Shown here: positions 3,031 to 61,602 of the stretch, piece by piece | Layout: every line of letters starts with the position of its first letter | Numbering within the stretch: the first letter of the stretch is position 1 | NCBI GenBank assembly: GCA_028715115.1 | Contig: JAQUSN010000002.1 | Coordinates: forward strand, 210,816 to 274,815 | Direction: 5' to 3' | From: Patescibacteria group bacterium | GTDB lineage: Bacteria > Patescibacteriota > Patescibacteriia > UBA2591 > UBA4787 | DNA: 64,000 nt | Translations under genes and position numbers: made by a program | Notes under the pieces: generated by a model | What the model was told of the DNA's origin: nothing | Databases searched by the model: none | What the model saw: the letters and a program-made list of their open reading frames with translations, nothing else

Positions 3031-3060
3031 TTGACAAAAATTAATAAAATGATAATATAT
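3031..3060 (+). promoter_or_regulatory. Consensus-like promoter of the 'TTGACAAAA..AAAATGATAATAT' family (cassette a).
   Basis: TTGACA at 3031-3036 and an AT-rich -10 about 17 nt downstream. The same architecture recurs at about ten other sites. Confidence 0.45.
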
Positions 3061-3205: not shown

Positions 3206-3238
3206 GGGCGGGTGTTCTCAACCCGCCCTGTTGTTTTA
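3206..3238 (+). terminator. Rho-independent terminator (GGGCGGGTGTTCTCAACCCGCCC + TGTTGTTTT).
   Basis: Perfect 8 bp GC stem followed by a T tract. Confidence 0.6.
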
Positions 3239-3287: not shown

Positions 3288-5948
3288 TTACTTAGATGTA
3301 TGCTCTATTTTTAATTTTCTTTTAACCACCGCCTGCGCCGCGGCAATTCTGGCAATCGGTACGCGATATGGAGAACAGCTGACATAATTCATACCTGCTT
3401 CATAACAAAACCCTATGCTAGCTGAATCGCCCCCATGCTCGCCACAAATTCCAATTTTTAAACCTTTCTTTACGCTTCGTCCCTTATTAATGCCAATTTT
3501 TACCAATTGCCCTATTCCCTCCTGATCTAAAGATTGAAACGGATCGGCTGCAATAATTTTTTTATTTAAATAAACCTTTATAAACTTACCTGAATCGTCG
3601 CGTGAAAAACCCATCCCCATTTGCGTTAAATCATTAGTACCAAAAGAGAAAAAATCCGCTTCTTGGGCAATTTGATCGGCTGTTACCGCGGCTCGCGGGA
3701 CTTCAATCATGGTGCCAACCAAATATTCAATCTTAGTTTTATATTGCTTCATAACTTCGGCGGCGATTTTTTTAACCACGTCTTTTTGATTTTTAAGCTC
3801 GTTAACATTACCGACCAATGGAATCATTATTTCCGGAACAACCTTAATATTTTCTTTTTTTAATTCACAGGCTGCAGAAATAATAGCCCGAACTTGCATC
3901 TCGGTAATTTCCGGGTAGGTGATGCCGAGCCGGCAGCCGCGATGACCAAGCATCGGATTAAATTCGTGAAGCTCTTGCGCCTTTGCCCAAATCTTTTCTT
4001 CGGAAATTTTTATTTTTTCCGATAACTCTTTGGCTTCTTTTTGATCCTTTGGCAAAAATTCATGAAGCGGCGGATCAAGGGTGCGAACCGTCACCGGATA
4101 ACCTCTCATCTCTTTGAATAATTCCTTGAAATCTTCTTTTTGAAATGGCAATAATTTATTTAAAGCCGCTCGTCTGGTTTCTTCGGTATCGGCAATAATC
4201 ATCTCCTGTATGTACGGCAGTCTATCTTTGTCAAAAAACATATGTTCGGTTCGGCAGAGCCCAATGCCTTCAGCGCCAAATATTCGCGCCATTTTAGCAT
4301 CGCGCGGCATATCGGCATTGGCTCGTACCTTTAATTGCTTAATTTCATCAACCCATTTCATTAATTGACCAAATTCTCCGCTTAAAGTTGGTTGCACAGT
4401 AGCCACTTTTCCCAAAATAATTTGACCGGTATTGCCATCAAGCGTCAGCCAATCACCTTCATTAACGATATTTTTACCTAAATGAAATTTTTTATTTTTT
4501 TCATCGACTTTCAGTTCTTCACAACCCACCACGCAACAACGGCCCATGCCCCTGGCCACTACGGCCGCATGACTGGTCATACCGCCTCTGGCGGTTAACA
4601 CTCCTTGCGCCACTTCCATACCGTGAATATCATCGGGGCAAGTTTCGGTACGCACCAAAATTACCGGTTTATCTACGCCTAAGGCTGTTGCCTCTTCGGA
4701 ACTAAACACAACATGACCGACTGCCGCCCCTGGTGAAGCCGGCAAACCTCGTCCAATAGCTTGCGATTTAATTTTTGGATCTAAGATTGGATGTAATAAT
4801 TGATTAATTTGCTCCGGCTCAACGCGTAAAATAGCCACCTCTTTGGAAATCATTTTTTCTTTTACCATATCAACGGCATTTTTTATGGCCGCTCGCGCTG
4901 TTCTTTTACCAGTACGAGTTTGTAGAATATACAGTTTATTTTTTTCTACCGTAAATTCAAAGTCCTGCACGTCTTTATAATGTTTTTCTAAACGCTTAGT
5001 AATTGTTTTTAGTTGCCTATATACCAGCGGCATATCTTTGGCTAAACTGGCGATTGGCTGTGGCGTTCTAACTCCCGCCACCACATCTTCGCCCTGGGCA
5101 TTAATTAAATATTCTCCATAAAATTGATTTTCGCCCGTAGCCGGATTTCTTGTAAAACCGACGCCGGTTGCGCAATCGTTGCCCATATTTCCAAAAACCA
5201 TAACCTGAATATTAACGGCCGTTCCTAAATCATCGGATATTTTATTTAAACGGCGATAAGTCTGCGCCCGAGGATTGTTCCAACTTTTAAATACGGCATC
5301 GCGCGCCATTTTTAATTGCTGATACGCATCGACCGGTAAATCATGTTTAGTAATTTCTCTGATTAATTTTTTATACTGACTGATTATCTCTTTTAAATCA
5401 TCTTCCCTTAAATCAAAGTCGTATTTAATATTCCTTTTTTCTTTTATTTCTGTAAGGATTTCTTCGAATTGTTCTTTGGCTATTCCCAAAACCACATTAC
5501 CGAACATTTGAATAAACCGGCGATAAGTATCATAAACAAATCGAGGATTTTTCGTGGTTTTGATTAGATTTACCACATTCTCATCATTCAAACCCAAATT
5601 CAAAATCGTATCCATCATGCCGGGCATAGAAAATCTAGCGCCACTGCGGACTGAAACCAATAACGGGTTTTTACTATCGCCTAATTTTTTATTAACGCTT
5701 TTTTCTATTTTTTTAAGCGCAGATTTTATTTGTTTGTCCAGTTCAGATGGTAATTTATTATTATGATCATAAAAATAATTACAAACCTCGGTAGTAATCG
5801 TAAAACCAGGCGGCACCGGTACTCCAGCCTTGGCCATATCAGCTAACCCCGCGCCCTTGCCTCCCAACGTGTCTTTCATTGTTATATTACCTTCAGTTTC
5901 ACGATCGCCAAAATAATAAACCAATTTCTGCGTTCTTTTTTTTGCCAT
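3288..5948 (-). CDS. ppdK: Pyruvate, phosphate dikinase.
   Basis: 886 aa. N-terminal ATP-grasp region, central phosphohistidine domain (GGMTSHAAVVARGMG) and C-terminal PEP-utilizing TIM barrel. Confidence 0.9.
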   Translation of the reverse strand: MAKKRTQKLVYYFGDRETEGNITMKDTLGGKGAGLADMAKAGVPVPPGFTITTEVCNYFYDHNNKLPSELDKQIKSALKKIEKSVNKKLGDSKNPLLVSVRSGARFSMPGMMDTILNLGLNDENVVNLIKTTKNPRFVYDTYRRFIQMFGNVVLGIAKEQFEEILTEIKEKRNIKYDFDLREDDLKEIISQYKKLIREITKHDLPVDAYQQLKMARDAVFKSWNNPRAQTYRRLNKISDDLGTAVNIQVMVFGNMGNDCATGVGFTRNPATGENQFYGEYLINAQGEDVVAGVRTPQPIASLAKDMPLVYRQLKTITKRLEKHYKDVQDFEFTVEKNKLYILQTRTGKRTARAAIKNAVDMVKEKMISKEVAILRVEPEQINQLLHPILDPKIKSQAIGRGLPASPGAAVGHVVFSSEEATALGVDKPVILVRTETCPDDIHGMEVAQGVLTARGGMTSHAAVVARGMGRCCVVGCEELKVDEKNKKFHLGKNIVNEGDWLTLDGNTGQIILGKVATVQPTLSGEFGQLMKWVDEIKQLKVRANADMPRDAKMARIFGAEGIGLCRTEHMFFDKDRLPYIQEMIIADTEETRRAALNKLLPFQKEDFKELFKEMRGYPVTVRTLDPPLHEFLPKDQKEAKELSEKIKISEEKIWAKAQELHEFNPMLGHRGCRLGITYPEITEMQVRAIISAACELKKENIKVVPEIMIPLVGNVNELKNQKDVVKKIAAEVMKQYKTKIEYLVGTMIEVPRAAVTADQIAQEADFFSFGTNDLTQMGMGFSRDDSGKFIKVYLNKKIIAADPFQSLDQEGIGQLVKIGINKGRSVKKGLKIGICGEHGGDSASIGFCYEAGMNYVSCSPYRVPIARIAAAQAVVKRKLKIEHTSK

Positions 5949-10127: not shown

Positions 10128-10200
10128 ATACAAAAAGACGAGATTGTTCTCGCCTTGTTTTTTATATAAAAAGACGAGTGTTCTTGCTCGTCTTTTTATA
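10128..10200 (+). terminator. Tandem terminators of the 'AAAAAGACGAG..CTCG' family.
   Basis: AAGACGAG TGTTCTT GCTCGTCTT perfect hairpin followed by TTTTAT. An upstream partial copy is GACGAGATTGTTCTCGCC. Confidence 0.6.
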
Positions 10201-10627: not shown

Positions 10628-12868
10628 TTATTTTCTAAAACCATGAATAATGTTTTGCCAAACGGGAGCTAGTCGAGTATTCACAAAACCCGTAACAGTA
10701 ATATTGCCAATAATTGGTTGTGCTACTGAACCTATGCTGGCGACACCAAATTTACGTAAGAAAGAACTCCAAAGAGAACCAGAGCTGCCGGTCAAACCAG
10801 AAATGGGCAATGGCGTAATTTCTGTTGGCGGGGTTGATGGTAAAGGAACAATCTCCTCTGGTATGGTCGGGGTCGGAGTCGGAACTGGCGCTGGGGTTGG
10901 AATAACTGGCGGAATAATTACGGGTTGAATAATTTCTTCACCTAAAGTAGTAAAACAATATTCTGGGCTAACAGTTATGGGACTGCGAGAAACAACTCTA
11001 TAACAATAAACAGTTGAAGGTAATAAATTATATAATGACACTGAATGGAAAAGAACAGCCGGACTAACATTATATTCAGGGGTGGCGTAGACATACCCAA
11101 GTTTTGGCGGATTATCTGAAACCTGACTTAAATCAAGAAGATGTGGCTCATTCTCTTGAGAATAAATAATATAGCTTGTTGCCAAAAGATTAGTATACCA
11201 AGTAAACGCAGCACTACTTTCTGAACGTGAAACTAGTTTTTCATTATAAATTACTAGTGGCACACCACCACCACCTCCTCCTCCACCTCCTCCGCAAGAT
11301 TGTGTATTACAAACTAGACTTGAATCACCTTCGCAATTTTTTCCGCCATTAGCCGGCGCAGGATTAGTGCAAGTTCTTGTTTTGGTCCCACCACCGCAAC
11401 TTACAGAACAAGCACTCCAATCCGACCAACCGCCATCTATTGGCGTGGGCGGCGGAGCTGCCTGGATATCGTTATTAGTAATGGTACAACTTTTGTTGTC
11501 ACCGATAGCTAAAGTAATAACACCATCAGCATCACAATCTCCGCTAAAAGTTGCCGTATAACCACTCGGGCCTTGTTCAGAAACAAGGTAAGTCCCTACT
11601 GGAAAATTATTTGTTTCACCGCTAACAACCTGAGTTTCGCCAACATAAAGAGAAAAGTCGCTAACTTGAGAGGTACCGCCATCGTCATTAATAACCACCT
11701 TGGTAACCGTAAGCGCAGCGCAGTCTGGCGAATATGGAGTAATTTTTATTGGTTCATCAGTAAACTTAAATGTAAAAACAGATTTATCTACATGTCTCTC
11801 GGCAAAAAATATTTGAATAAGATGAGGGCCAGCGGTTAAATGTACAAATCCGTATTTATGTGTTTCACTATGAACCCCTCCGTTATCTATAGCCAAGACT
11901 CCGTCTATATAAACCCAAGAGTCATCATCAGAACCTAAATCATAATAATAGTCAGCTTCTGTTTCGATAGAGGCTACACCAGCCCAAGTCACTCCTAAAT
12001 GAAAATCATGGCCGTAATAAATTTCTTCTGCTGCCATATCGAAAGGAAAAAAGTTTTTACCAAAATCTACCGAGCTGTCTATTCTTGAAAATCTAAAATA
12101 AGATTGATCATACCAATCAGCAGTCCACGGATCCACATAACTCAACGGATCGCCATGCGTCCGGTCGGGCCATTTAGAAGGAGGCAAATTCATGTCCTTG
12201 TGGTGAATAGAATAATTAAAATACTCGCCATACCAACCGCTACCAACTATATCTGGACAAGTTAATTGTTCTAATTCACACGTAGCAGAACATCCATCTC
12301 CGTTAATATTATTATGGTCATCGCATTCTTCGCCATCATCTTTTACTCCGTCACCACACGTAGACAAAACAGGAGCCAAAGATAATGGAGCTAAAAATAA
12401 ATTTATTGGACTATCGTCATTAGTAATAGTACAAACCTTTGATTCGCCTGCTTTTAATAATATATTGCCATTTGAGTCGCAATCACCGCTAAAAGTTGCC
12501 GTATAACCGCTCGGGCCTTGTTCAGAAACAAGGTAAGTCCCTACTGGAAAATTATTTGTTTCACCGCTAACAACCTGGGTTTCGCCAACATAAAGAGAAA
12601 AGTCATCAACCTGAGAAACGCCGCCATCGTCATTAATAACCACTTTTACGATTTTGATTGAAGCTAATTCATTATCAGAATTATTAGGAGCCGATAAAAT
12701 AACGTCCGTGGATGTAGTAGATGCATTGGAGCTAAAGATATCGGCTAATAATTCTTCGGCTGAAACATAATCAAAAGACATAACCGACGATATCATTATC
12801 ATTAAACTAATCAGAAAAACTTTACCCTTGTGTTTGTGATTAATGAGTTTTAATAGAATGTTTTTCAT
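10628..12868 (-). CDS. Large secreted multidomain surface protein: signal peptide, two copies of a roughly 60 aa Ig-like repeat, a Myxococcus-type Cys-rich repeat, a PA14-like domain, a thrombospondin type-1 repeat, a poly-Gly linker, an FN3-like region and a Pro/Thr-rich C-terminal tail.
   Basis: [19 protein letters not shown] (Cys-rich repeat). [20 protein letters not shown] (TSP1 consensus WSxWSxCSxTCGxG). PA14-like [16 protein letters not shown] region. GGGGGGGGGG linker. Confidence 0.7.
11536..11698. repeat. Intragenic direct repeat, copy 1. About 163 bp, nearly identical to 12480..12643.
   Basis: The DNA is almost identical, with only a few mismatches, and encodes the duplicated Ig-like repeat. 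Confidence 0.7.
12480..12643. repeat. Intragenic direct repeat, copy 2.
   Basis: See copy 1. The two copies are 944 bp apart. Confidence 0.7.
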
Positions 12869-13284: not shown

Positions 13285-13313
13285 TTGACAAAATTATAAA
13301 ATATGCTAATCTA
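13285..13313 (+). promoter_or_regulatory. Promoter TTGACAAAATTATAAAATATGCTAATCT (cassette e, first unit).
   Basis: Close match to the promoter at 9823. Confidence 0.45.
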
Positions 13314-13346
13314 TATTCATTGATCGAGGGTCTAAAAAGGAGCTAC

Positions 13347-13409
13347 ATGAAGAAGCTGAAGCCCGATCTTACGTTGATGCACACCCTGTACTGCGCGAGC
13401 GGCGACTGA
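13347..13409 (+). CDS. Possible 20 aa leader peptide (MKKLKPDLTLMHTLYCASGD).
   Basis: Good ribosome-binding site (AAAAAGGAG) 6 nt upstream. Followed by an ORF-free GC-rich region. Confidence 0.25.
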   Translation: MKKLKPDLTLMHTLYCASGD

Positions 13410-13580
13410 TCGCGGACCCGGGCCGGCCCGAACCGGTCGATCCATGGAGGAATAATGAGCGGATTCGTCTAAGAACCAGCCAGGTGCGGGTAAAACCCGC
13501 ACTAGTCCCACAATTAGGGGATGGTTCGAACCGGCGAATACATCCCTGAAGGAGCGTCCTGTGGCGCTCCTTTTCTTTTA
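13410..13580 (+). ncRNA. GC-rich untranslated segment ending in a terminator (AGGAGCG..CGCTCCT + TTTTCTTTT). Candidate small RNA or cis-regulatory leader.
   Basis: No ORF. Internal repeats of 'CGAACCGG'. A terminator hairpin at 13549-13580. Confidence 0.25.
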
Positions 13581-13594
13581 TATTATAGCGTGGC

Positions 13595-13623
13595 TTGACA
13601 AAAAACGAAAAAATAAATAATAT
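13595..13623 (+). promoter_or_regulatory. Promoter TTGACA-N17-TAATAT (cassette e, second unit).
   Basis: The track ORF 13595..14116 begins with the TTG of this -35 box. The true start is more likely 13679. Confidence 0.45.
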
Positions 13624-13678: not shown

Positions 13679-14116
13679 ATGGCAGAAGCAACGATGAGGG
13701 TCAACCGCCCATCGCGGTATCAAGACATCGCCGGGATAGCAATCACTATCCTGATTATGATCTTGGTGGCCTCTCCCGGTCTATACCCGATGATCAAGGG
13801 AGGACTGGTGATGAGCGCCAAGACCTCGGGATGGTTGACTACCACAATTCTTGTCGCGTCCGTGATCGTAGGTGTGATAGCGATGTTTGTCCTGGCCGAA
13901 TGGGATGCCCGTTCCAACAGATTCCCTTTCGCCGCCTGGAAGGTCATCCTCTGTACCTACCTCCTCAACTTCATCGTCTCGCTCACTCTCACCTTTGCCG
14001 CCGCAAGATCACCGGCTCACATCGTCTGCGCAATCGTCGGTGGTCTCTACGTCGGCGTCGTCGCCTTCGTAATGCTGTGTCTGTGGGCTATAGGCAGCAC
14101 CGAGGCGGAGCTCTAG
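13679..14116 (+). CDS. GC-rich polytopic membrane protein (about 145 aa, 4 TM).
   Basis: GGAGG ribosome-binding site 4-5 nt upstream of the ATG at 13679. Hydrophobic segments. Followed by complex terminators. Confidence 0.5.
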   Translation: MAEATMRVNRPSRYQDIAGIAITILIMILVASPGLYPMIKGGLVMSAKTSGWLTTTILVASVIVGVIAMFVLAEWDARSNRFPFAAWKVILCTYLLNFIVSLTLTFAAARSPAHIVCAIVGGLYVGVVAFVMLCLWAIGSTEAEL

Positions 14117-14139: not shown

Positions 14140-14240
14140 GTAGGGCTCGCAGAAAGCAAAACCAAATGGGTTTCGCCTACTCGCGAGCCCATTTGATTAT
14201 TATAAAAAGACGAGATTACTCTCGCTTTCTTTTTTTTTGT
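14140..14240 (+). terminator. Nested hairpins plus a copy of the shared 'AAAAAGACGAGATTACTCTCGC' terminator module.
   Basis: GGGCTCGC..GCGAGCCC and AAATGGG..CCCATTT stems, then GACGAGATTACTCTCGC followed by T9. Confidence 0.5.
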
Positions 14241-14285: not shown

Positions 14286-14313
14286 CAAAATAAACATTAA
14301 TAATTATTTAAAG

Positions 14314-16128
14314 TTATGATTTTATTCCTTTTTGCCTTCTTAGTTCTTCTGTTTCGTCTAAAATTATTTTTCTGATACGTATGTTCTTTGGCGTTACTTC
14401 TACTAATTCATCATCACCAATATACTCCAGGGCATCTTCAAGGTCCATTATTTGCGGAGCGTTAAAATGTTCAGCCGTGCCTTCGCCTCGGGAACGCATA
14501 TTACTAAGCCTCTTCTCTTTACAAACATTAACTCTCATATCTTGAGTGCGACTATTTTGGCCAACCACTTCTCCTTTATAAACCTTTTCACCTGGGCCAT
14601 AAAATAAAATACCGCGACCCTGAGCAATTAATAAACCATACAAACAAGTAATTCCCGATTCATGAGCAACTAATGAACCATGATTTCGTTCAATCTTCTT
14701 GTCAGTCTTTGGCCGATAACCATCAAAAAGAGTGTTCATAATGCCCAGGCCTCGAGTATCTGTTAAAAACCCGCTTCTGAATCCAAAGAGTCCGGCGGTA
14801 GGAACGGTAAACTCAAGATTGGTAATACCGTCTTCTGTTTTCATTTTTAAAAGTTGGCCCTGAACATTGCCAAGTTTTTGAATAATAATACCGGCATATT
14901 GTTCCGGCACATCGATAAAAATCAATTCCCATGGTTCCATCTTCTGACCATTAATTTCTTTTTCAATCACCTGGGGACGCGAAACCTGAAATTCATATCC
15001 TTCACGTCTCATTCTTTCAATTAAAATAGCCAAATGTAATTCTCCTCGTCCAGACACAATCCATTCGCCGGTTTGACTATCTTCAACTCTCAAGGCCATA
15101 TCTGTTTCAAGCTCTTTGTAAAGACGTTCTCTGATTTGACGAGAGGTGCTAAATTGCCCTTCTTTGCCGGCAAAAGGAGAAGAATTAATAGAAAAAATCA
15201 TTTTAACCGTAGGTTCGTCAATTTTTAAAACCGGTAAGGCGGTCGGATTATTAACGTCACTAATTGTTTCACCAATATTGATATCTGAAATCCCGGCTAT
15301 AGCAACAAGATCTCCGGCCTCGACTTTATCAACCTCTACTCTCTCTAGTCCCGAGAAATTCATTAAGCTGGTAAGACGGCAATTTTTAATTTCACCCGTG
15401 CGATTAATGTGGGACACTTCTTGGCCGGCCCTTAAAGTGCCGTTTTGCAACCGACCAATGGCAATACGGCCCTTAAAATTATCATAAGTAGTGGTTGTTA
15501 CTAACATTTGCAGGGTCGCTTGCGAATCAGATTTTGGCGCCGGAATATATTTTTCAATAGCTTCAAAAATGGGAATAATATCTGTCATTTTATCCAAATT
15601 TGCTTGCGTTCCTGCTTTACCTAATTTTGAAGAAGCATAAACTACCGGGAATTCAGCGGTTTCATCGTCAGCCCCAAGTTCTAAAAATAAATCAAAGGTT
15701 TTATCTAAAACAAAATTTGGCCGAGCATCTGGTTTGTCGATTTTATTAATGACCACAATTATTTTATGTTTTGTCTCCAGTGCCTTTTTTAAAACAAATC
15801 TTGTCTGTGGCATCGGACCTTCCTTAGCGTCAACTAGCAAAAGGCATCCATCGGCCATTTTTAAAACACGCTCAACTTCTCCCCCGAAGTCAGCATGACC
15901 GGGAGTGTCGATAATCTTTATCTTCAGATCATGCCACTCTACTGAAGCATTTTTGGAAAAAATAGTAATCCCTCTTTCTCTTTCTAATTCATTACTATCC
16001 ATAATACAAATATTTTGCGCGACTTCTTTTTTTAAGTGAGTTTGCGATTGTCTAAGTAAAGCATCCACGAGCGTTGTTTTGCCGTGGTCTACGTGAGCAA
16101 TGATAGCGACGTTTCTAATTTGTTTCAT
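14314..16128 (-). CDS. typA: Translational GTPase TypA/BipA.
   Basis: AHVDHGKTTL G-domain motif. 604 aa. EF-G-like domain order. Confidence 0.9.
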   Translation of the reverse strand: MKQIRNVAIIAHVDHGKTTLVDALLRQSQTHLKKEVAQNICIMDSNELERERGITIFSKNASVEWHDLKIKIIDTPGHADFGGEVERVLKMADGCLLLVDAKEGPMPQTRFVLKKALETKHKIIVVINKIDKPDARPNFVLDKTFDLFLELGADDETAEFPVVYASSKLGKAGTQANLDKMTDIIPIFEAIEKYIPAPKSDSQATLQMLVTTTTYDNFKGRIAIGRLQNGTLRAGQEVSHINRTGEIKNCRLTSLMNFSGLERVEVDKVEAGDLVAIAGISDINIGETISDVNNPTALPVLKIDEPTVKMIFSINSSPFAGKEGQFSTSRQIRERLYKELETDMALRVEDSQTGEWIVSGRGELHLAILIERMRREGYEFQVSRPQVIEKEINGQKMEPWELIFIDVPEQYAGIIIQKLGNVQGQLLKMKTEDGITNLEFTVPTAGLFGFRSGFLTDTRGLGIMNTLFDGYRPKTDKKIERNHGSLVAHESGITCLYGLLIAQGRGILFYGPGEKVYKGEVVGQNSRTQDMRVNVCKEKRLSNMRSRGEGTAEHFNAPQIMDLEDALEYIGDDELVEVTPKNIRIRKIILDETEELRRQKGIKS

Positions 16129-16257
16129 ATTTTATTTCGCAGCTATAAAATAAAAATCTTCCTGTCCATCAAGAAGATTATTATTCTTCCAGAAATAGCC
16201 TTAATTATTTTAGCTTTTATTATTCTAACAAAAATAGTAAAAATTGTCAACCGTCAT

Positions 16258-16286
16258 CTTGACAAAAGCGCAAAATGTGATAAAAT
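16258..16286 (+). promoter_or_regulatory. Promoter TTGACAAAAGCGCAAAATGTGATAAAAT (cassette f).
   Basis: Family consensus. Confidence 0.5.
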
Positions 16287-16497: not shown

Positions 16498-16585
16498 GCT
16501 CACCAAGAGTCTCCAGCAAATGGGACTCGACGTGAGCCTTTTGCTTTTACAAAAAAAGACGAGATTACTCTCGCCTCTTTTTATC
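16498..16585 (+). terminator. Hairpin GGCTCAC..GTGAGCC followed by TTTTGCTTTT, then the shared 'ACAAAAAAAGACGAGATTACTCTCGCCTCTTTTTAT' module.
   Basis: Same terminator module as at 10128 and 14205. A variant occurs at 27661. Confidence 0.55.
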
Positions 16586-17868: not shown

Positions 17869-18411
17869 CTATGGCTCATCTTCTGTTTCCTCTGTGTGGT
17901 CCACTATTGGGAAAACGCTCAGGATCATCACGCTTAGGACTTTTCTCGGCAACATTAGCGTCACCATCTCGCCCATTGTTTTGCCTAACAGTTGTTGAGC
18001 CAACGGAGAATCAACCGAGGCAAAACAAATCTCTCTTCCTTTAGATTCCCGATAGCGTGGGTTAAAAACCAGATCGGCGGCTCCTACGATCCCGTAAACA
18101 TCCATCTCTTGAGTGTCGATGTCCAGCGTTTTGGCGCACATTCCTGGCCTGACTGTTGGAAGAACTCCGCTTTCGGGCGGCAGGTCTTCGATGAACTTAG
18201 GATCGTGCAGAAATTGCCGAACCGTTGCCAGGTTCTGCATCCGGCTCTTTTGCTGCCGCAGCAGGTTCAACCAATCAGGATTGTCGTGCCAACCACCACC
18301 AGTCTCGTACGATCTCCCAACCTGTCCCGATACTCGCTCTAACTCCTTCATTAGACTTGCGTGTTCTTTTTGAAGGAGCATAAGCGTTTCTCGAAACATT
18401 ATGTTTTCCAT
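17869..18411 (-). CDS. GreA/GreB-family transcription elongation factor-like protein. GC-rich cassette g.
   Basis: C-terminal FKBP-like segment ICFASVDSPLAQQLLGKTMGEMV resembles the GreA 'ISVNSPIARGLIGK..' region. N-terminal coiled coil. AAAGGAGG ribosome-binding site. Confidence 0.6.
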   Translation of the reverse strand: MENIMFRETLMLLQKEHASLMKELERVSGQVGRSYETGGGWHDNPDWLNLLRQQKSRMQNLATVRQFLHDPKFIEDLPPESGVLPTVRPGMCAKTLDIDTQEMDVYGIVGAADLVFNPRYRESKGREICFASVDSPLAQQLLGKTMGEMVTLMLPRKVLSVMILSVFPIVDHTEETEDEP

Positions 18412-18449
18412 TAGACCTCCTTTCTAGACTATAGTAGCTCTCTCTAACA

Positions 18450-18485
18450 CTATTAATATATCATTTTTTTACTTTTTGTCAAGTA
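18450..18485 (-). promoter_or_regulatory. Promoter CTTGACAAAAAGTAAAAAAATGATATATTAAT (minus strand) for the GreA-like gene.
   Basis: Same family consensus as the plus-strand cassettes. Confidence 0.45.
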
Positions 18486-37134: not shown

Positions 37135-37690
37135 AAACGAAGGGCCTGACTGCATAGTCAGGCCCCTGGACATGGAAAGGGGTCAAACGCCGAGTTCTCG
37201 TTGCTTCCACCAGAAAGACGAATGGAGGCCTAAAGAAGCCTTTGCCCTATCGCTTTCGAGTTGCACTGACTCGTTTACGAGAACCTGTGTGCCCGGTCAA
37301 CGAGTAAACCAAGCTTAAGCGCGCAACCCCAAATATAAGCCGATGGCTAAGGATCGCTCCGTGGACCGGTTGGGAACCAGCCGCGCAAAGAAAAGGAGCG
37401 AACTCAAATCAGATGCTGACACGCAAGGACTTTCGTTTGTCTACTATATGAAGTTAACGGAGGCACTTCACCCGCCCCGTTATAGCTCAGTTGGTTAGAC
37501 CTTGCGGTAAACACCGGAGGAAGGTTTGGGTATGAGTTGAGTCTTACCTCTCACCATCGGCGAAAACCTCCAAATGGCGCCAGAATTGAAACAGTGACAA
37601 GGGCGGACGCGATAGTGGTGAAATATCGATAGCTACGAAGCAGTAAGCCGCCACGTACGCCGCTCATTTCTGGCTTATTTAATATAACAT
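37135..37690 (-). ncRNA. ORF-free GC-rich region of about 550 nt bounded by terminators. Candidate structured RNA(s) or a decayed GC-rich cassette. Identity unresolved.
   Basis: There is no ORF of 60 aa or more on either strand despite elevated GC. A terminator (GGGCCTGACT..AGTCAGGCCC followed by T6 on the minus strand) sits at 37135-37170. The region contains GAAAGTCC, CGGCTTA and GGTGAGAGGTAAGA, which resemble RNase P RNA motifs, but in the wrong order for a canonical RNase P RNA. Confidence 0.2.
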
Positions 37691-37711
37691 TTTATAAATT
37701 AAAGTCCAGTG

Positions 37712-37750
37712 GAAAATAAAAAACTTTCGAGGCCTAACGGCCTCGAAAGA
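37712..37750 (-). terminator. Strong terminator after the DUF1015 gene (CTTTCGAGGCC TAAC GGCCTCGAAAG + T tract).
   Basis: 11 bp perfect stem. Confidence 0.65.
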
Positions 37751-37797
37751 AAATATATATTTTTTTATTACTTTCTATTAAATAGAAGCTTATTTGT

Positions 37798-41282: not shown

Positions 41283-42026
41283 CTACTGCCTTGTCTTGGC
41301 CATGGCCTCCATCAGTCGAGGCCACTCTGCCTTCGGTTTCAAGATCACGTTGCCGGCTGCGATGTCAGCCGCAACTGCCGGATCGTCCTGCTTCCACTGC
41401 TCGGTTGGCTTATTGACCAGAGCCACAACCGGCCTCTTTTCCCATTCCATTTTACCGGAACGGTTCAAGAAACAACCAACCCCAACCAGTCTTGCGCCGG
41501 TAGTCCCAATCGCAGCAGCGGCCTGACCGGTAGTAGAGTAGTTATTGCAGACATCTTCCACCAACAGGCATGGCGCATCGCGACCGATGTCATGACGCGA
41601 CAGAACCAGTTCGGACTGCTCGCGGCTCGTACCGGTAGCCAAGGCCGTCACCCTCTTCTCCAGGAAGGCAAACCGCTTACGCAGCGCCATCGCTACCAAA
41701 GCGGCCAATACGATACCTCCCATAGGTGCACCAATGACGACGTCGAATTGCGAATCGAAATCGCCATGACGCAACTCAAAGCCCAGTCTCTCGGCTTCTT
41801 GTCGAAGAACGTTGGGGTCTTGCTCGAGTGTAGCAACGTTGAAGTAAACGTCGCCGACATACTGCAGTTTCTGCCCATCAGATCCCTCGTAACGGCCAGC
41901 ATAACCGACTAGAGGTCCGAGACGCTTGCCGGTTATGGGGTCTCTTGGACAGGCATAGTAGCCACCCGCGGCATGAAGTATATCTAGCGGATCACTTGCC
42001 GGACCTATTTCTTCCATTTCATTCAC
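41283..42026 (-). CDS. Type I phosphoribosyltransferase, orotate phosphoribosyltransferase-like. GC-rich.
   Basis: PRPP-binding motif LLVEDVCNNYSTTGQAA. Directly downstream of pyrF. Confidence 0.5.
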   Translation of the reverse strand: MNEMEEIGPASDPLDILHAAGGYYACPRDPITGKRLGPLVGYAGRYEGSDGQKLQYVGDVYFNVATLEQDPNVLRQEAERLGFELRHGDFDSQFDVVIGAPMGGIVLAALVAMALRKRFAFLEKRVTALATGTSREQSELVLSRHDIGRDAPCLLVEDVCNNYSTTGQAAAAIGTTGARLVGVGCFLNRSGKMEWEKRPVVALVNKPTEQWKQDDPAVAADIAAGNVILKPKAEWPRLMEAMAKTRQ

Positions 42027-42050
42027 CTCCTTTCATTGGTGAGTTTGGAG

Positions 42051-42953
42051 TTATACGTGCTCGTCGCCAGCGGGAAAAGGAATGTCGCCGCCAGCCGCCC
42101 TGATCTGATCGCGTAGCTTCTCGGCTTCTGCGGCCGGATCGCTGGCGAAGATGATGCCGGACGATGAGTTGATGGTGATGGAACCGGGTCCTGCGAAAGC
42201 AGCCTTGACCGTCTCTTCGACGAATCCCTTCTGCGTTCCGATGCCCGGAATGAGCATCCACATCTCGTTGCCCACGATCTCCCTACATCTTGAAAGGTGC
42301 CAGAAGTAGACCTTGGACTCGTCGCTCGGATCCTTGTGAGCCGCGCCCATGACTACGCCGGCATTCTCGATGACCCCCAGCTCTTTCGACCACTGAAGCA
42401 GATTCTGGACCATGAACTCCCAGAAACGCAGACCGCTCTCCATCTTCGCATCCTAGATAACCCAGGCTTCTTTGTTGCTGGTCCGACCGAGGCCGACTAG
42501 TGCTCGACCCGGACGCTTTTCGTCGATCAGCGACATGAGCGTATCCTTGCCCATGTATCCGACGAAGTTCATCCCATCGGCGTTTTCGAGGCCGAGGTGA
42601 GTATTGCCGTAGAGCCTCTGAGTACGATCGATGTCGCCCCTCTTGCAGTCAACCATCACCGGAATGTCCGGATGATTCGCGTGGATGTAGCCGATGAGCA
42701 TCTTGAGAACCCCAAGCCCATCGGGAATTGCCTCCCAGTGAGCGTGCTGGAACTTGAACATCGACGCAGCGTGTTCGGTATCATCGATGACGCCCATCAT
42801 CCACAGATAGAGAGCGACATGCACAGCACATCCCATCTCCAGGAACCTGGACGGCATCCTCTCGATCAGCGGATCGAGGCCGACACAGACGAGGGAGTTT
42901 GCCCTCTTCTGCCTTTCTGTTAGCTTCTTGCGGAACCGTCTGTCTTCTGCCAT
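42051..42953 (-). pseudogene. pyrF: Orotidine-5'-phosphate decarboxylase (type 2 PyrF) interrupted by an in-frame TAG at 42444-42446.
   Basis: The upstream part has VCVGLDP and MVDCKRGDI (D-x-K-x-x-D). The downstream part has LIPGIGTQ. The two track ORFs (42453..42953 and 42051..42443) are in the same frame, separated by a single amber codon. Confidence 0.65.
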
Positions 42954-43034
42954 TACGAACTCCTTTGTGTTTGGTGTTTTTCCTAAAGAACAAGAGGCTA
43001 AGCCCTCCTAGCAGCTTTGCCCCCTCTATAATTA

Positions 43035-43063
43035 CATTATCCTGCTTTTTCTAGTTTTGTCAA
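43035..43063 (-). promoter_or_regulatory. Promoter TTGACAAAACTAGAAAAAGCAGGATAATG (minus strand) for the pyrF/PRTase island.
   Basis: Family consensus. AAGGAG ribosome-binding site before the pyrF ATG. Confidence 0.4.
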
Positions 43064-47263: not shown

Positions 47264-49843
47264 TTAAAGCGTCGAAGTTGGAGTAGAAGCAGGACCGTAA
47301 TTAGGCGTAGTTGGTTTTTTGTCTAATTCAATTGCTTTGGCTCTTTCTAAAATTTCGCTCTCAACAACCGCTTTGGGTCGGCCGTATTTTAAGTGCGACA
47401 TTTCTTTTACTAACTTCGCCACTTCTTCGTTCCCTTTGCGCGGCGGCATGCCCAACATATTAAACGGCCTGACTGCTTCTTTATCAACCAGTAATTTCAC
47501 GTAAGCGTTAAATCGCTCAACATTAATTAAATCATATTCATTTAAAACGGGCGCAAATTGTTTAACCAAAACTTGCGCATCTTCAATGCCGATATTAAAA
47601 GCTATCATCGTGCCTACCGTGCCCAGCACCGCGTCGCGAATTGAAGTGTCGTTATTTTTTGTCAGCTGCCCCATATATTGATGGGCAATGGTCAGATCAA
47701 GTTTATATTTTCTCGCTTCGGACAAAATCACGCCAATCGTATCAGTGATAAAATTCTGGAACTCATCAATGTATAAATAAAAATCTCGGCGATTTTCTTC
47801 GGTGGTATCAGCGCGTGAAAACGCGGCCATAGTAATTTTACCAACGATAACTAAGCCCAAAAGATATGCATTCAGATCTCCCACCAAGCCTTTTGGCAAG
47901 GTTACCAGCACGATTTTGCCTTCGTCCATGGCCTTGCGGAAATTAAAAGCACTGGCCTGCTGGCCGATAATCGGCCGCATAATATCGTTAGAAATAAATT
48001 GATTCAACTTTGAAGTGATATAAGGAGTCATGTTGGAAAGAGCTGCTTCACCGCCAGCCTTCTCGGCTTCTTTAATCCAGAAATCGCGCACTACCGGATT
48101 GGTACAATGTTTTAATTTAAAATGGCGGAATTCAGGGTCGGCCATTACTTTGGGAATTTCCATTAGCGTCGAACCGGATTCGGGATGTTCCATAATCAAC
48201 AGCATGGCGTTACGCATATATTGTTCGAACATCGGGCCACCGGTTTGGCGCAAATCATAAAGCTTATCCATTATCTTAATCATTTCGTTAATCACAAAAG
48301 TTTTTTGTTCCGGATATTTTGAATCGTATTCAAGTAGATTCAAGCCCATCGGCCTATCAATATTGGCCGGATTAAAATAAATTACGTCCTCAGCTCGCTC
48401 TTTGGGAACGTTAGCTAAAATATTTTCCACTAAATCGCCATTCGGATCAATAACGCAAACGCCCTCGCCGTTTTCGATATCTTGAATGGCCATATTGGAG
48501 ATCAGGACGGATTTACCCACGCCGGTTTTACCGATTAGATATACATGTCGGCGGCGATCGTCGCGTTTAATGCGGATAATTTTTTCTTCTCCGCGATAAA
48601 TGTTTTTGCCTAAAATAATTCCTTCGGTCGGAATATTAACCGGCGCCGGAGCCTTCTTGGCTAAGAGCCACTGAATATTCGGCACTTCGGTAATTGATAA
48701 AGGAAAATGAAACAAACTGGTCAACTCTTCAGTATTTAAAACAAAACCGGTAGACGGAATAAAATCGCGATAAATAAAATTACGAACTACGTTAGCCGAG
48801 GCGCTGGTTGGCACGGCCTTAAAACCATTGCCATATTCATAACCGGTATACTGAGCAAAAGAATTTAAAATATTTTGCAAAGACATTTTAGCCGCATTTT
48901 TGTCCTGGCTGGCCACGACTATTCTAATATTAATATCAAGTCCTGCTTTCGAACTTTTTGCCTCTAAACCTTTGATTATCTCTTGCTCCATTGGTGAAAG
49001 CTGATGTGGCTTATTTATATCTTTTAACTGGTCTTTTTTGTTATCGGTGGCATAAAAACTTTTCACGAATTTCCAAACGCCGCCCTTTTTCTTGCTCATC
49101 ACTTCGCTCAACTTTTTTCCTTGCTGCATTTCAGTCGCAATCTTGGCGCCGACGCGATGCCACTCGGCATTAGCCGAACGCGCGACTATCTGAATAGCTG
49201 CCGAGCTGCCCTGCGGAATCTTTGATAAAGAAGTTAAAATGCCATTTAATGGATCATTTTCTAGCTGTTGGTAAGTTTTAATGGGAAAGGCCCATTTATT
49301 ACGAAGTTTGAGGTAGGCCGACTCGATTTGGGATTTAGAATCAAAAAGATTATAATCTTCAACTGTTTCGATTTGGGCGGCCGGATGTTGAGCATGAATT
49401 TGCTGTTCAACAAATTGCCTTAAAGATTTTGGCATCACGACGTAAAAACGGATCACGCCATCCTTGTTGATTACTATTTCAAAACTAATATGATCGTTAC
49501 GGCCCAAAAAATTTACCTTCAAACCGTGTTGAGCTTTTAATCCGCCGATATTAGCAAAAAAACCTTCCATCGGCGATAGCAAATCCTTGATTTGCTTTTG
49601 TTGTTTATTGTCGTCGCCACTCGATTCTTTGGGCACGGTGATTAATAAAACCACTTTGTCAAAAGCAGTCGAAAAACGGGCTATATTTTTTAAATAATTT
49701 TTTAATACAGCGAAAATAATTAAAAATAAAATAATAATTCCGATAAAAATTAAAAAATAAATGAAAAATCCGCCACTAAGCAATCCTATTCCTGCTTGTT
49801 GGGCGGTATTGAGATCTAAACTTGGCACTTGAAGATCATTCAT
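47264..49843 (-). CDS. Membrane-anchored P-loop ATPase of the type IV secretion/conjugation superfamily (VirD4/TraG- or VirB4-like, DUF87-like).
   Basis: N-terminal TM segment. Walker A LIGKTGVGKS followed by VIDPNGD. Walker B YLYIDEFQNF. An AHQYMGQL motif. Confidence 0.5.
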   Translation of the reverse strand: MNDLQVPSLDLNTAQQAGIGLLSGGFFIYFLIFIGIIILFLIIFAVLKNYLKNIARFSTAFDKVVLLITVPKESSGDDNKQQKQIKDLLSPMEGFFANIGGLKAQHGLKVNFLGRNDHISFEIVINKDGVIRFYVVMPKSLRQFVEQQIHAQHPAAQIETVEDYNLFDSKSQIESAYLKLRNKWAFPIKTYQQLENDPLNGILTSLSKIPQGSSAAIQIVARSANAEWHRVGAKIATEMQQGKKLSEVMSKKKGGVWKFVKSFYATDNKKDQLKDINKPHQLSPMEQEIIKGLEAKSSKAGLDINIRIVVASQDKNAAKMSLQNILNSFAQYTGYEYGNGFKAVPTSASANVVRNFIYRDFIPSTGFVLNTEELTSLFHFPLSITEVPNIQWLLAKKAPAPVNIPTEGIILGKNIYRGEEKIIRIKRDDRRRHVYLIGKTGVGKSVLISNMAIQDIENGEGVCVIDPNGDLVENILANVPKERAEDVIYFNPANIDRPMGLNLLEYDSKYPEQKTFVINEMIKIMDKLYDLRQTGGPMFEQYMRNAMLLIMEHPESGSTLMEIPKVMADPEFRHFKLKHCTNPVVRDFWIKEAEKAGGEAALSNMTPYITSKLNQFISNDIMRPIIGQQASAFNFRKAMDEGKIVLVTLPKGLVGDLNAYLLGLVIVGKITMAAFSRADTTEENRRDFYLYIDEFQNFITDTIGVILSEARKYKLDLTIAHQYMGQLTKNNDTSIRDAVLGTVGTMIAFNIGIEDAQVLVKQFAPVLNEYDLINVERFNAYVKLLVDKEAVRPFNMLGMPPRKGNEEVAKLVKEMSHLKYGRPKAVVESEILERAKAIELDKKPTTPNYGPASTPTSTL

Positions 49844-61037: not shown

Positions 61038-61174
61038 ATTTATATAATAAAATAATTTTCGTTAATTCAAGACTAACCTCAACTAACCAAAAAGTCCCGC
61101 TTGTCGCGGTCTAGGGGGCTATAGATCTGTAAAGATATTATAGCATAAATATAAATTTTAGCCAGAGATAAAAA

Positions 61175-61490
61175 GAGGAGGGCCAGCTTTCGCCGGCCCT
61201 CATTGCACTCCAGGTTGTAGTCTGTCTTTCGACAAGACCGAGCTCGCCATCCGAGACAACGATAGCCTTCTTAAGGCTTAGGTTATAACCCCGGCTGTTC
61301 GCCGAGCACCTGTTTTGTTGTCTCCGATAACTCGCCCGTATTCTAGTAGTCCTTCTCCACTGCGCCTCCATGGGGAGCCGCGCGACTCGACGCCGCACGA
61401 CGGTTTAGAGCTTCCGGATCTTGCTCGACCGTACAGCGCACCAGTGAAACACCGGCGCGGCGGACAGACGATATCCGTTAGGACGTATCC
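61175..61490 (-). ncRNA. GC-rich transcription unit of about 315 nt with a strong promoter and terminator but no credible ORF. Candidate small RNA.
   Basis: On the minus strand: promoter TTGACA-N17-TATTAA (61525..61497) and terminator GGGCCGGCGAAAGCTGGCCC followed by TCCTCTTTTTATC (61179-61201). The only long ORF (61138..61398) is Arg-rich and reads through the terminator. Confidence 0.3.
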
Positions 61491-61546
61491 ATGATTATTA
61501 ATATACCAAAAACAAAAAAAATGTCAAGGGATTTTTCCACAGACCT

Positions 61547-61571
61547 AACCCCCGCTTTCTTAGAAAGCGGG
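61547..61571. promoter_or_regulatory. Perfect 12 bp-arm palindrome CCCCCGCTTTCT t AGAAAGCGGGGG between divergent promoters, abutting the -35 box of the promoter at 61574.
   Basis: Perfect inverted repeat. It could be an operator or a bidirectional hairpin. Confidence 0.4.
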
Positions 61572-61573
61572 GG

Positions 61574-61602
61574 TTGACAAAAGCCAAAAAATATATTAAA
61601 AT
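61574..61602 (+). promoter_or_regulatory. Promoter TTGACAAAAGCCAAAAAATATATTAAAAT (cassette k).
   Basis: -35 TTGACA, 17 nt spacer, -10 TAAAAT. Confidence 0.5.

Follow-up and report, generated by a model that had tools for sequence, protein, structure and literature searches.

Layout of the locus

The subject of this study is a short, GC-rich element on the plus strand of a bacterial chromosome (13285-13580; unit 1) and its relation to the membrane-protein gene that follows it (unit 2). Both lie in a window of 64,000 nucleotides, that is, the whole stretch of DNA that was analyzed, which is part of a 308,640-bp contig (JAQUSN010000002.1) from a metagenome-assembled genome of Patescibacteria (candidate phyla radiation). 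A preliminary description had divided the site into two tandem units, the first made up of a promoter, a Shine-Dalgarno (SD) sequence, a 20-codon open reading frame (ORF), a GC-rich tail, and a terminator, the second of a promoter and a gene for a 145-residue membrane protein. This anatomy was borne out, and unit 1 is tentatively read here as an autonomous, moron-like mini transcription unit that is insulated from its neighbor. Its features are the following (positions are those of the window):

13285-13312, plus strand: promoter 1, with −35 hexamer TTGACA (13285-13290), a 16-nt spacer ending in TG (13304-13305), and −10 hexamer TAATCT (13307-13312)
13337-13342, plus strand: SD sequence AAGGAG, 4 nt before the ATG, a spacing within the range of the other cassettes
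13347-13409, plus strand: 20-codon ORF, MKKLKPDLTLMHTLYCASGD, from ATG (13347) to TGA (13407-13409)
13410-13547, plus strand: GC-rich non-coding tail, 138 nt, 58.7% GC compared with ∼29-31% for the adjoining intergenic DNA, ORF-free
13444-13455, plus strand: mini-ORF MEE followed by a stop, read from the sequence
13446-13472, plus strand: internal SD-like GGAGG (13446-13450) with the 5-codon mini-ORF MSGFV followed by a stop (ATG at 13455, TAA at 13472)
13483-13503, plus strand: hairpin H1, a perfect 9-bp stem (GGUGCGGGU/ACCCGCACU) without a T-tail
13517-13547, plus strand: hairpin H2, 12 pairs with one bulge and the loop AACCGG
13548-13580, plus strand: intrinsic terminator found by a terminator scan, with an 11-bp stem (13548-13573), the loop CUGU, and a T-run reaching to 13580

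Unit 1 is one of about ten GC-rich, mostly orphan cassettes situated between AT-rich housekeeping genes. It is 59-64% GC, compared with 27-31% for the flanking intergenic DNA and ∼37% for the genome, and the GC content at third codon positions (GC3) is 0.9, compared with ∼0.3 for host genes. The latter are themselves ∼37% GC and lie nearly all on the minus strand. The locus was also present in four independent Logan assemblies (runs SRR22315506-09; 99.97-100% identity) and is, thus, not an artifact of assembly. Judged from the numbering of locus tags, the depositors' annotation at NCBI apparently contains nothing between the gene for a 746-residue protein and that for the 145-residue protein.

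Promoter and coding signature of the 20-codon ORF

Promoter 1 is of the sigma-70 type. Its −35 hexamer is perfect, its −10 is extended and weak, with only three of the six consensus positions matched, which is why a generic promoter scan missed it. An alignment places it, base for base, alongside the promoters of three other cassettes (9813, 16259, and 27120). The motif CTTGACAAAA, with no more than one mismatch, occurred at 19 sites in the window, compared with 8.4 ± 2.6 in shuffled sequence, and in none of 100 shuffles was the number of 19 reached. What had been called a family promoter is simply the sigma-70 consensus of this genome; typA, on the minus strand, uses TTGACA-17-TAGAAT.

The 20-codon ORF has G or C at 18 of its 20 third codon positions and shows a three-base periodicity (p = 0.0007). 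For scoring its codons, a usage table was compiled from another 11 cassette ORFs of the window, likewise GC-rich. Under this table, the 19 codons after the ATG scored +5.7 bits (shuffle p = 0.003), level with the median of true 20-codon windows from cassettes (5.5) and above off-frame windows (95th percentile 1.3). Relative to host codon usage the score was +15.7 bits, and the two other frames of the same stretch scored −19 and −1.5 bits. Codon score and periodicity together indicate that the ORF is, or recently was, a real coding sequence, and of the same foreign type as the ORFs of the other cassettes. The peptide itself is hydrophilic (mean Kyte-Doolittle value −0.21).

Read-through of the UGA, including its use as a selenocysteine codon, was considered and set aside. 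The 20 codons past the TGA scored −0.06 bits, which is ambiguous; GC3 remains 11/11 over the first 11 of the codons that follow. The hairpin after the UGA folded no better than shuffled sequence (z = +0.2). Read-through was set aside also because TGA is an ordinary stop in this genome: it terminates five long host genes, from which the use of the standard genetic code follows.

The tail, its hairpins, and the terminator

The tail scored negative for codon usage in all six frames (between −6 and −21 bits), and its periodicity was not significant (p = 0.12). The internal repeat reported for it, CGAACCGG, is indeed present at 13429 and 13527 (estimated chance expectation ∼0.2); the 8-mer is not specific to unit 1, as two further copies lie at 48170 and 59334. 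The internal GGAGG-ATG, for which our own estimate of the chance expectation is ∼0.02, resembles in its layout the SD-ATG heads of other cassettes.

Folding yielded three individually stable hairpins in succession. H1 (−15.6 kcal/mol, z = −4.3) had pair probabilities of 0.8-1.0 in the full transcript and H2 (−15.0 kcal/mol, z = −3.1) of ∼0.6-0.8; the terminator was the most stable of them (−17.1 kcal/mol, z = −5.6), with a probability of formation of ∼1.0 in the ensemble. Its boundaries, formerly put at 13549-13580, are corrected to 13548-13580, which leaves the 138 nt listed above for the ORF-free tail (13410-13547). Compared with shuffled sequence, the whole transcript reached z = −1.75, the tail only −2.06, and the tail's opposite strand −2.46. 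As a whole, the tail thus folds weakly better than shuffles, and its opposite strand does so equally well. At gathering thresholds, Rfam returned no family for unit 1 and only three tRNAs for the whole window; in E-value mode, all matches between 13200 and 14300 were far below their thresholds.

Unit 1 resembles leader-peptide attenuators, such as those of the trp, his, and pyrBI type, in that an SD-led short ORF, hairpins, and an intrinsic terminator precede a gene on the same strand, and an arrangement of this kind had indeed been proposed for the locus. Translation of the 20-codon or the 5-codon ORF would then modulate the terminator at 13548-13580 and, thereby, read-through into the gene for the 145-residue protein. 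The order of the elements is as expected for such a device, and 10 nt separate the stop of the 5-codon ORF from H1. However, when folding of the nascent transcript was followed, the 5′ arm of the terminator met only weak and variable partners before its 3′ arm had been made; forbidding the terminator cost 14.6 kcal/mol, and no replacement helix arose; H2 and the terminator abut without overlap. Hence, unlike the known attenuators, unit 1 has no mutually exclusive antiterminator. There is also no run of regulatory codons in MKKLKPDLTLMHTLYCASGD, no leader family in NCBIfam or Rfam matched, and a full consensus promoter (10/12) stands between the terminator and the gene. Attenuation at this site is very improbable.

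Predicted independence of the downstream gene

Unit 2 consists of three features:

13595-13623, plus strand: promoter 2, with TTGACA, a 17-nt spacer, and TAATAT, matching the consensus in 10 of 12 positions (promoter scan)
13679-14116, plus strand: gene for the 145-residue membrane protein, with SD sequence GGAGG 4 nt before the ATG and four hydrophobic segments in the product
14140-14233, plus strand: 3′ module, a long hairpin followed by the repeated terminator hairpin AAAAAGACGAGATTACTCTCGC and a T-run

As a strong terminator closes unit 1 and promoter 2 lies between that terminator and the gene, the latter would be expressed independently, from its own promoter. The terminator of unit 1 and promoter 2 together form a composite of stem-loop and promoter (13548-13623). 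The encoded protein (NCBI MDD5396326.1, a hypothetical protein) matched no family in Pfam or NCBIfam, and among 5.8 billion proteins it matched only itself. The 3′ module belongs to the repeat families D3 and D8, gave hits on both strands in the terminator scan, and aligns with copies at 10139 and 16550 and with one in a related species (locus L169; see below). A near-identical, bidirectional terminator hairpin, AAAAAGACGAGATTACTCTCGCC followed by a T-run, is found at 10139-10161, 14201-14233, and 16550-16582 of the window and at 1403-1432 and 8343-8384 of L169; this AAAAAGACGAGATTACTCTCGCC/GACGAGATTACTCTCGCC module, thus, marks the 3′ ends of three cassettes and recurs in the related species.

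The vicinity of a small RNA-like unit and a small membrane-protein gene had also called to mind type I toxin-antitoxin pairs. In such a pair, repression of the membrane protein would fall to the RNA of unit 1, or else the small peptide would act as the toxin. No complementary stretch shared by unit 1 and the mRNA of unit 2 exceeds 8 nt, a length equaled by 167 of 200 shuffles, and the duplex energy was no better than that of shuffled sequence (69 of 100 at least as good). Furthermore, the two units are arranged in tandem on the same strand and neither overlap nor converge. The 20-residue peptide is hydrophilic, and the membrane protein (145 residues, four transmembrane helices) greatly exceeds type I toxins (less than ∼60 residues) in size. 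A weak match to the Rfam family BsrG (11.6 bits, gathering threshold 55) is noise. A toxin-antitoxin function of the pair is, on this evidence, scarcely plausible.

GC-rich cassettes and variability of the site

On the plus strand of the window, units of this kind are located at 3031, 8650, 9813, 13595, 16259, 27120, and 61574; those at 18482 and 43063 belong to the minus strand. They share a TTGACA(AAA) consensus promoter, in most cases with an extended −10, an SD sequence of the GGAGG type, and one or two terminators, and their ORFs are GC-rich (GC3 of 0.54-0.73, compared with ∼0.3 in the host). Most of the cargoes are orphans (37, 58, 61, 77, 126, 128, and 145 residues), five of them with hydrophobic helices. 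Three are of known family: a GreA/GreB-like protein, an orotidine monophosphate (OMP) decarboxylase interrupted by an in-frame TAG, and a phosphoribosyltransferase. Within this set, unit 1 stands out for having the shortest ORF, the weakest −10, the longest distance from stop codon to T-tail, and an internal orphan SD-ATG.

The first of the three, encoded at 17869-18482 on the minus strand, is a GC-rich protein of 180 residues with a GreA/GreB C-terminal domain and a consensus promoter of its own. The other two form a GC-rich (∼55%) operon with a consensus promoter at 41283-43063, likewise on the minus strand, in which the decarboxylase gene, split by the TAG at 42453-42455, is followed by that of the phosphoribosyltransferase. 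This operon may be a recent horizontal acquisition, and the decarboxylase gene may be either a pseudogene or a gene expressed by read-through.

The neighbors of the two units, namely typA and genes for a DUF805 protein, a large surface protein, and a polyketide-cyclase-like protein, identify the surroundings as a cellular chromosome. With TypA as the anchor, relatives of the locus were gathered from GTDB genomes, metagenomes of the Joint Genome Institute (JGI), and a protein collection. Identity of the TypA protein was 94% for L167 and L168, 92% for L169 and L170, 91% for L171, 83% for L172, and 82% for L173 and L174. In the two closest relatives, a nucleotide similarity of ∼84% ends at the ends of typA (∼14302-14314 and 16135-16243). 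Neither unit 1 nor unit 2 was present in any of these relatives (TypA identity 82-94%); instead, typA is flanked there by different promoter-driven small genes, and a JGI contig whose typA is 84% identical at the DNA level carries different GC-rich content at the site of the 16259 cassette (cassette f). As the content of the flanks differs in all relatives, the site is hyperplastic and unit 1 lineage-specific. With synteny lost in the relatives, no clean empty site can be defined for unit 1.

On the far side of typA, the minus-strand typA promoter and the plus-strand promoter of the 16259 cassette stand back to back, 8 bp apart (16222-16264), and the similarity to the relatives ends at 16243, between the two. 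The similarity stops at the typA stop codon and at ∼16243, next to promoters; the flanks are too diverged for the breakpoints to be mapped to a motif.

One of the relatives contains an arrangement like that of unit 1. At 3643-3850 of L167, a consensus promoter is followed by a GC-rich, ORF-less RNA of 165 nt and a terminator, and then by a second promoter and a gene for a 78-residue protein. The RNA (3672-3850) is closed by a helix between its 5′ and 3′ ends, folds with z = −4.6, and matches no Rfam family. It was considered as a homolog of unit 1 and rejected: the layout is the same, but 39 of 500 shuffles aligned equally well.

A comparable unit lies in the window itself, on the minus strand at 61172-61530. 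A TTGACA...TATATT promoter would give rise there to a transcript of ∼320 nt and 55% GC that ends in the terminator GAGGGCCGGC-GAAA-GCTGGCCCTC with a T-run. Its only sizeable sense ORFs (32 and 86 codons) start with GTG, lack a ribosome-binding site, and were taken as chance occurrences. The fold (61172-61495) has z = −4.7, and no Rfam family matched. The unit is probably an unannotated structured non-coding RNA. From this unit and that in L167 it follows that the lineage carries unannotated genes resembling those of non-coding RNAs.

Unit 1 might, by the same token, encode a trans-acting small RNA (sRNA), possibly one of dual function, whose hairpin-rich 3′ half exposes an unpaired linker, UAGUCCCACAAUUAG, for pairing with distant mRNAs. 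Its own promoter and terminator delimit a short transcript, the three consecutive hairpins are stable and form with high pair probabilities, GC-rich non-coding DNA is a typical mark of structured RNA where the genome is AT-rich, and ORF-less, GC-rich units running from promoter to terminator exist both at 61172-61530 and in L167. However, the two comparison units fold far better than the whole transcript of unit 1 (z = −1.75), and the opposite strand of the tail reaches −2.46; neither Rfam nor the RNA of L167 provides a relative, and no copy of unit 1 was found among 168 other loci. Dual-function sRNAs that also encode a peptide are known from Staphylococcus aureus (RNAIII/hld) and Bacillus subtilis (SR1/SR1P). 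Unit 1 is like them in being short, in having its own promoter and terminator, and in combining a small 5′ ORF with several 3′ hairpins. It differs from them in lacking any relation in sequence or in Rfam, in its weak structure signal, and in not being conserved; in addition, no target complementarity was found when it was compared with the mRNA of unit 2. An sRNA function of unit 1 appears unlikely.

Homology searches

Apart from the absence of unit 1 from the 168 other related or pattern-matched loci, the window itself contains no paralog of it beyond promoter and T-tail motifs; its head resembles cassette g only through the common start MKKL, and that likeness was dismissed. Pfam and NCBIfam scans of the frames of unit 1 returned nothing, nor did blastn of its DNA against phages and plasmids or tblastn of the frames of both strands against plasmids. 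Viral contigs scanned for the exact cores of H1 and H2 gave one chance match for each, without extension.

One frame remains open from 13310 to 13546 (79 codons) and stops at the foot of the terminator. It was tried as a real gene with HMMER on 1.84 billion representative proteins and rejected, since both of the two matches obtained were tandem-repeat artifacts: their E-values sum up as many as twelve weak repeats, of which one alone scores 26.6 bits. The 41-residue product of read-through yielded no candidate in a word-indexed search of 5.8 billion proteins. A clear homolog by which the region would be recognized as a degraded protein gene was, in all, sought in protein, profile, and plasmid searches, and none was found.

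Interpretation of unit 1

The reading tentatively preferred here is that unit 1 is an independent micro-ORF unit, laid out like a moron. The host's sigma-70-type machinery would recognize promoter 1 and produce a transcript of ∼260 nt, at whose 5′ end the SD sequence and the translatable 20-codon ORF, with its foreign codon usage shared with other cassettes, could give rise to a peptide with a possible role of its own. The 138-nt tail would remain untranslated, with H1, H2, and the terminator hairpin protecting the 3′ end. Transcription of unit 1 would cease at the strong intrinsic terminator, and the gene for the 145-residue protein would be expressed separately, from promoter 2. Its short ORF, its long tail, and the orphan SD-ATG inside it are suggestive of an origin of unit 1 from earlier cassettes that were truncated or recombined.

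Several points weigh against this interpretation. The −10 hexamer, with three of six matches, is the weakest among the cassettes, and a hydrophilic peptide of 20 residues has no precedent among the other cargoes, whose ORFs have 37-247 codons. The distance from the stop codon to the first terminator T-tail is 165 nt, compared with 37-77 nt in eight other cassettes, so that unit 1 may be a dead remnant. Conversely, the GC-rich tail with its intact hairpins could be the functional part, as an sRNA. All available copies of unit 1 are ∼100% identical and stem from the same population, which leaves no variation by which selection could be judged. Lastly, as it is located on a cellular chromosome and not in a prophage, the term moron describes a layout and not membership.

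Some of these properties are what would be expected of a non-functional relic, in which the decayed head or heads of one or two cassettes, namely the truncated ORF and a second, decapitated SD-ATG, would have become fused to leftover 3′ hairpins when a hyperplastic region underwent deletion or recombination, maybe still being transcribed. No cassette has a shorter ORF or a weaker −10, and both facts fit this view, as do the long path to the terminator and the internal orphan GGAGG-ATG with only 5 codons. H1 resembles the stems of cassette terminators (GCGGGT...ACCCGC, 3206-3229) and lacks a T-tail. Given the open frame at 13310-13546, loss of one G behind the ATG could have turned a gene of 67 codons into the present arrangement. 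Unit 1 is absent from all relatives, and degraded promoter/stem-loop modules are known from hyperplastic regions of phages (PMC4122927). On the other hand, the open frame scores −11 bits over 45 codons under the cassette table and has no real homolog among the 1.84 billion representative proteins; a simple nonsense mutation is excluded, because the frame of the ATG contains 5 stops in 46 codons. The tail, moreover, still has 59% GC and perfect hairpins, which recent acquisition could explain. Small, AT-biased genomes such as those of Patescibacteria should quickly delete dead DNA or enrich it in AT. Decay into a relic is, overall, possible, although on the unlikely side.

A more far-reaching scenario would be shuffling on the scale of the chromosome, similar to that of phage moron or PeSL systems (see below), with conserved promoter and terminator modules of the host type serving as recombination points at which foreign GC-rich fragments are captured and then expressed as micro-genes or new small RNAs, and with unit 1 acting as a lineage-specific dual-function sRNA. 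In this combined form it is decidedly unlikely.

Comparison with known systems

Morons are defined by their own promoter, their own terminator, and a deviating GC content (PMC3594210). Unit 1 resembles those of phages in having a sigma-70-type promoter, an intrinsic terminator, and a deviating base composition, and in being a unit with small orphan cargo that is inserted between conserved genes and missing from close relatives. Unlike phage morons, it is situated next to typA in the chromosome of a member of the Patescibacteria, no phage genes surround it, and its cargo comprises only 20 codons with a long non-coding tail.

A second parallel is provided by the promoter-early stem-loop (PeSL) composites found at the edges of variable ORFans in T4-like phages, where degraded or partial modules occur as well (PMC4122927). 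At 13548-13623, a terminator stem-loop is likewise followed by a near-consensus TTGACA-N17-TAnnnT promoter, and composites of this type border cassettes or variable ORFans also at 61545-61600, in L167 (2945-3005 and 3600-3670), and in L169 downstream of typA. In contrast to the PeSL system, the composites described here are part of a bacterial chromosome, and the stem-loops at the junctions do not share a single conserved sequence; repetition is limited to the GACGAGATTACTCTCGCC hairpin (10139, 14201, 16550, and L169), which is not that of unit 1. Recombination at promoter/stem-loop modules is inferred here, and membership of unit 1 among morons or PeSL elements is not claimed.

Taken by itself, unit 1 matters little, being a species-specific orphan for which no regulatory role can be demonstrated. 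More instructive is its context: a small genome of 37% GC harbors about ten GC-rich genes, each equipped with a consensus promoter, an SD sequence, and a terminator, and the cassette sites differ completely between relatives whose flanking typA is 84% identical. This pattern of GC-rich cassettes and structured-RNA-like units at hypervariable sites outweighs unit 1 in interest. If general, it would illustrate how foreign or new genes are taken up and tried out by ultra-small episymbiotic bacteria, in a manner comparable to the use of morons by phages, and it would point to micro-ORFs and small RNAs that are absent from the depositors' NCBI annotation.

Further features of the window

A family of 31-nt repeats, GGTCnCnTATGCAAGGACGTTAGAACC, has five copies in the window (20730, 24930, 27060, 27704, and 29430), two of which flank the 27120 cassette on both sides; a further copy, in reverse complement, is located at ∼3847-3876 of L167. 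The repeat could be a site of recombination or of binding.

Between 37125 and 37700 lies a GC-rich, ORF-poor block of 550 nt, delimited by a terminator-like hairpin (37135-37165) and a promoter-like site on the minus strand. It contains a motif resembling the D-arm of tRNA, TATAGCTCAGTTGGTTAGAC, on the plus strand; neither a tRNA nor an Rfam family was called in it. In the adjoining stretch (37709-37780), a partial match to the L10 leader reached 29 bits, below the gathering threshold of 44.

The gene for the 746-residue surface protein contains a direct repeat of 179 nt (11523-11701 and 12468-12646; 91% identity), which corresponds to a duplicated prealbumin-like (SpaA_2) domain. Further domains of this protein are of the PA14 and thrombospondin type 1 families.

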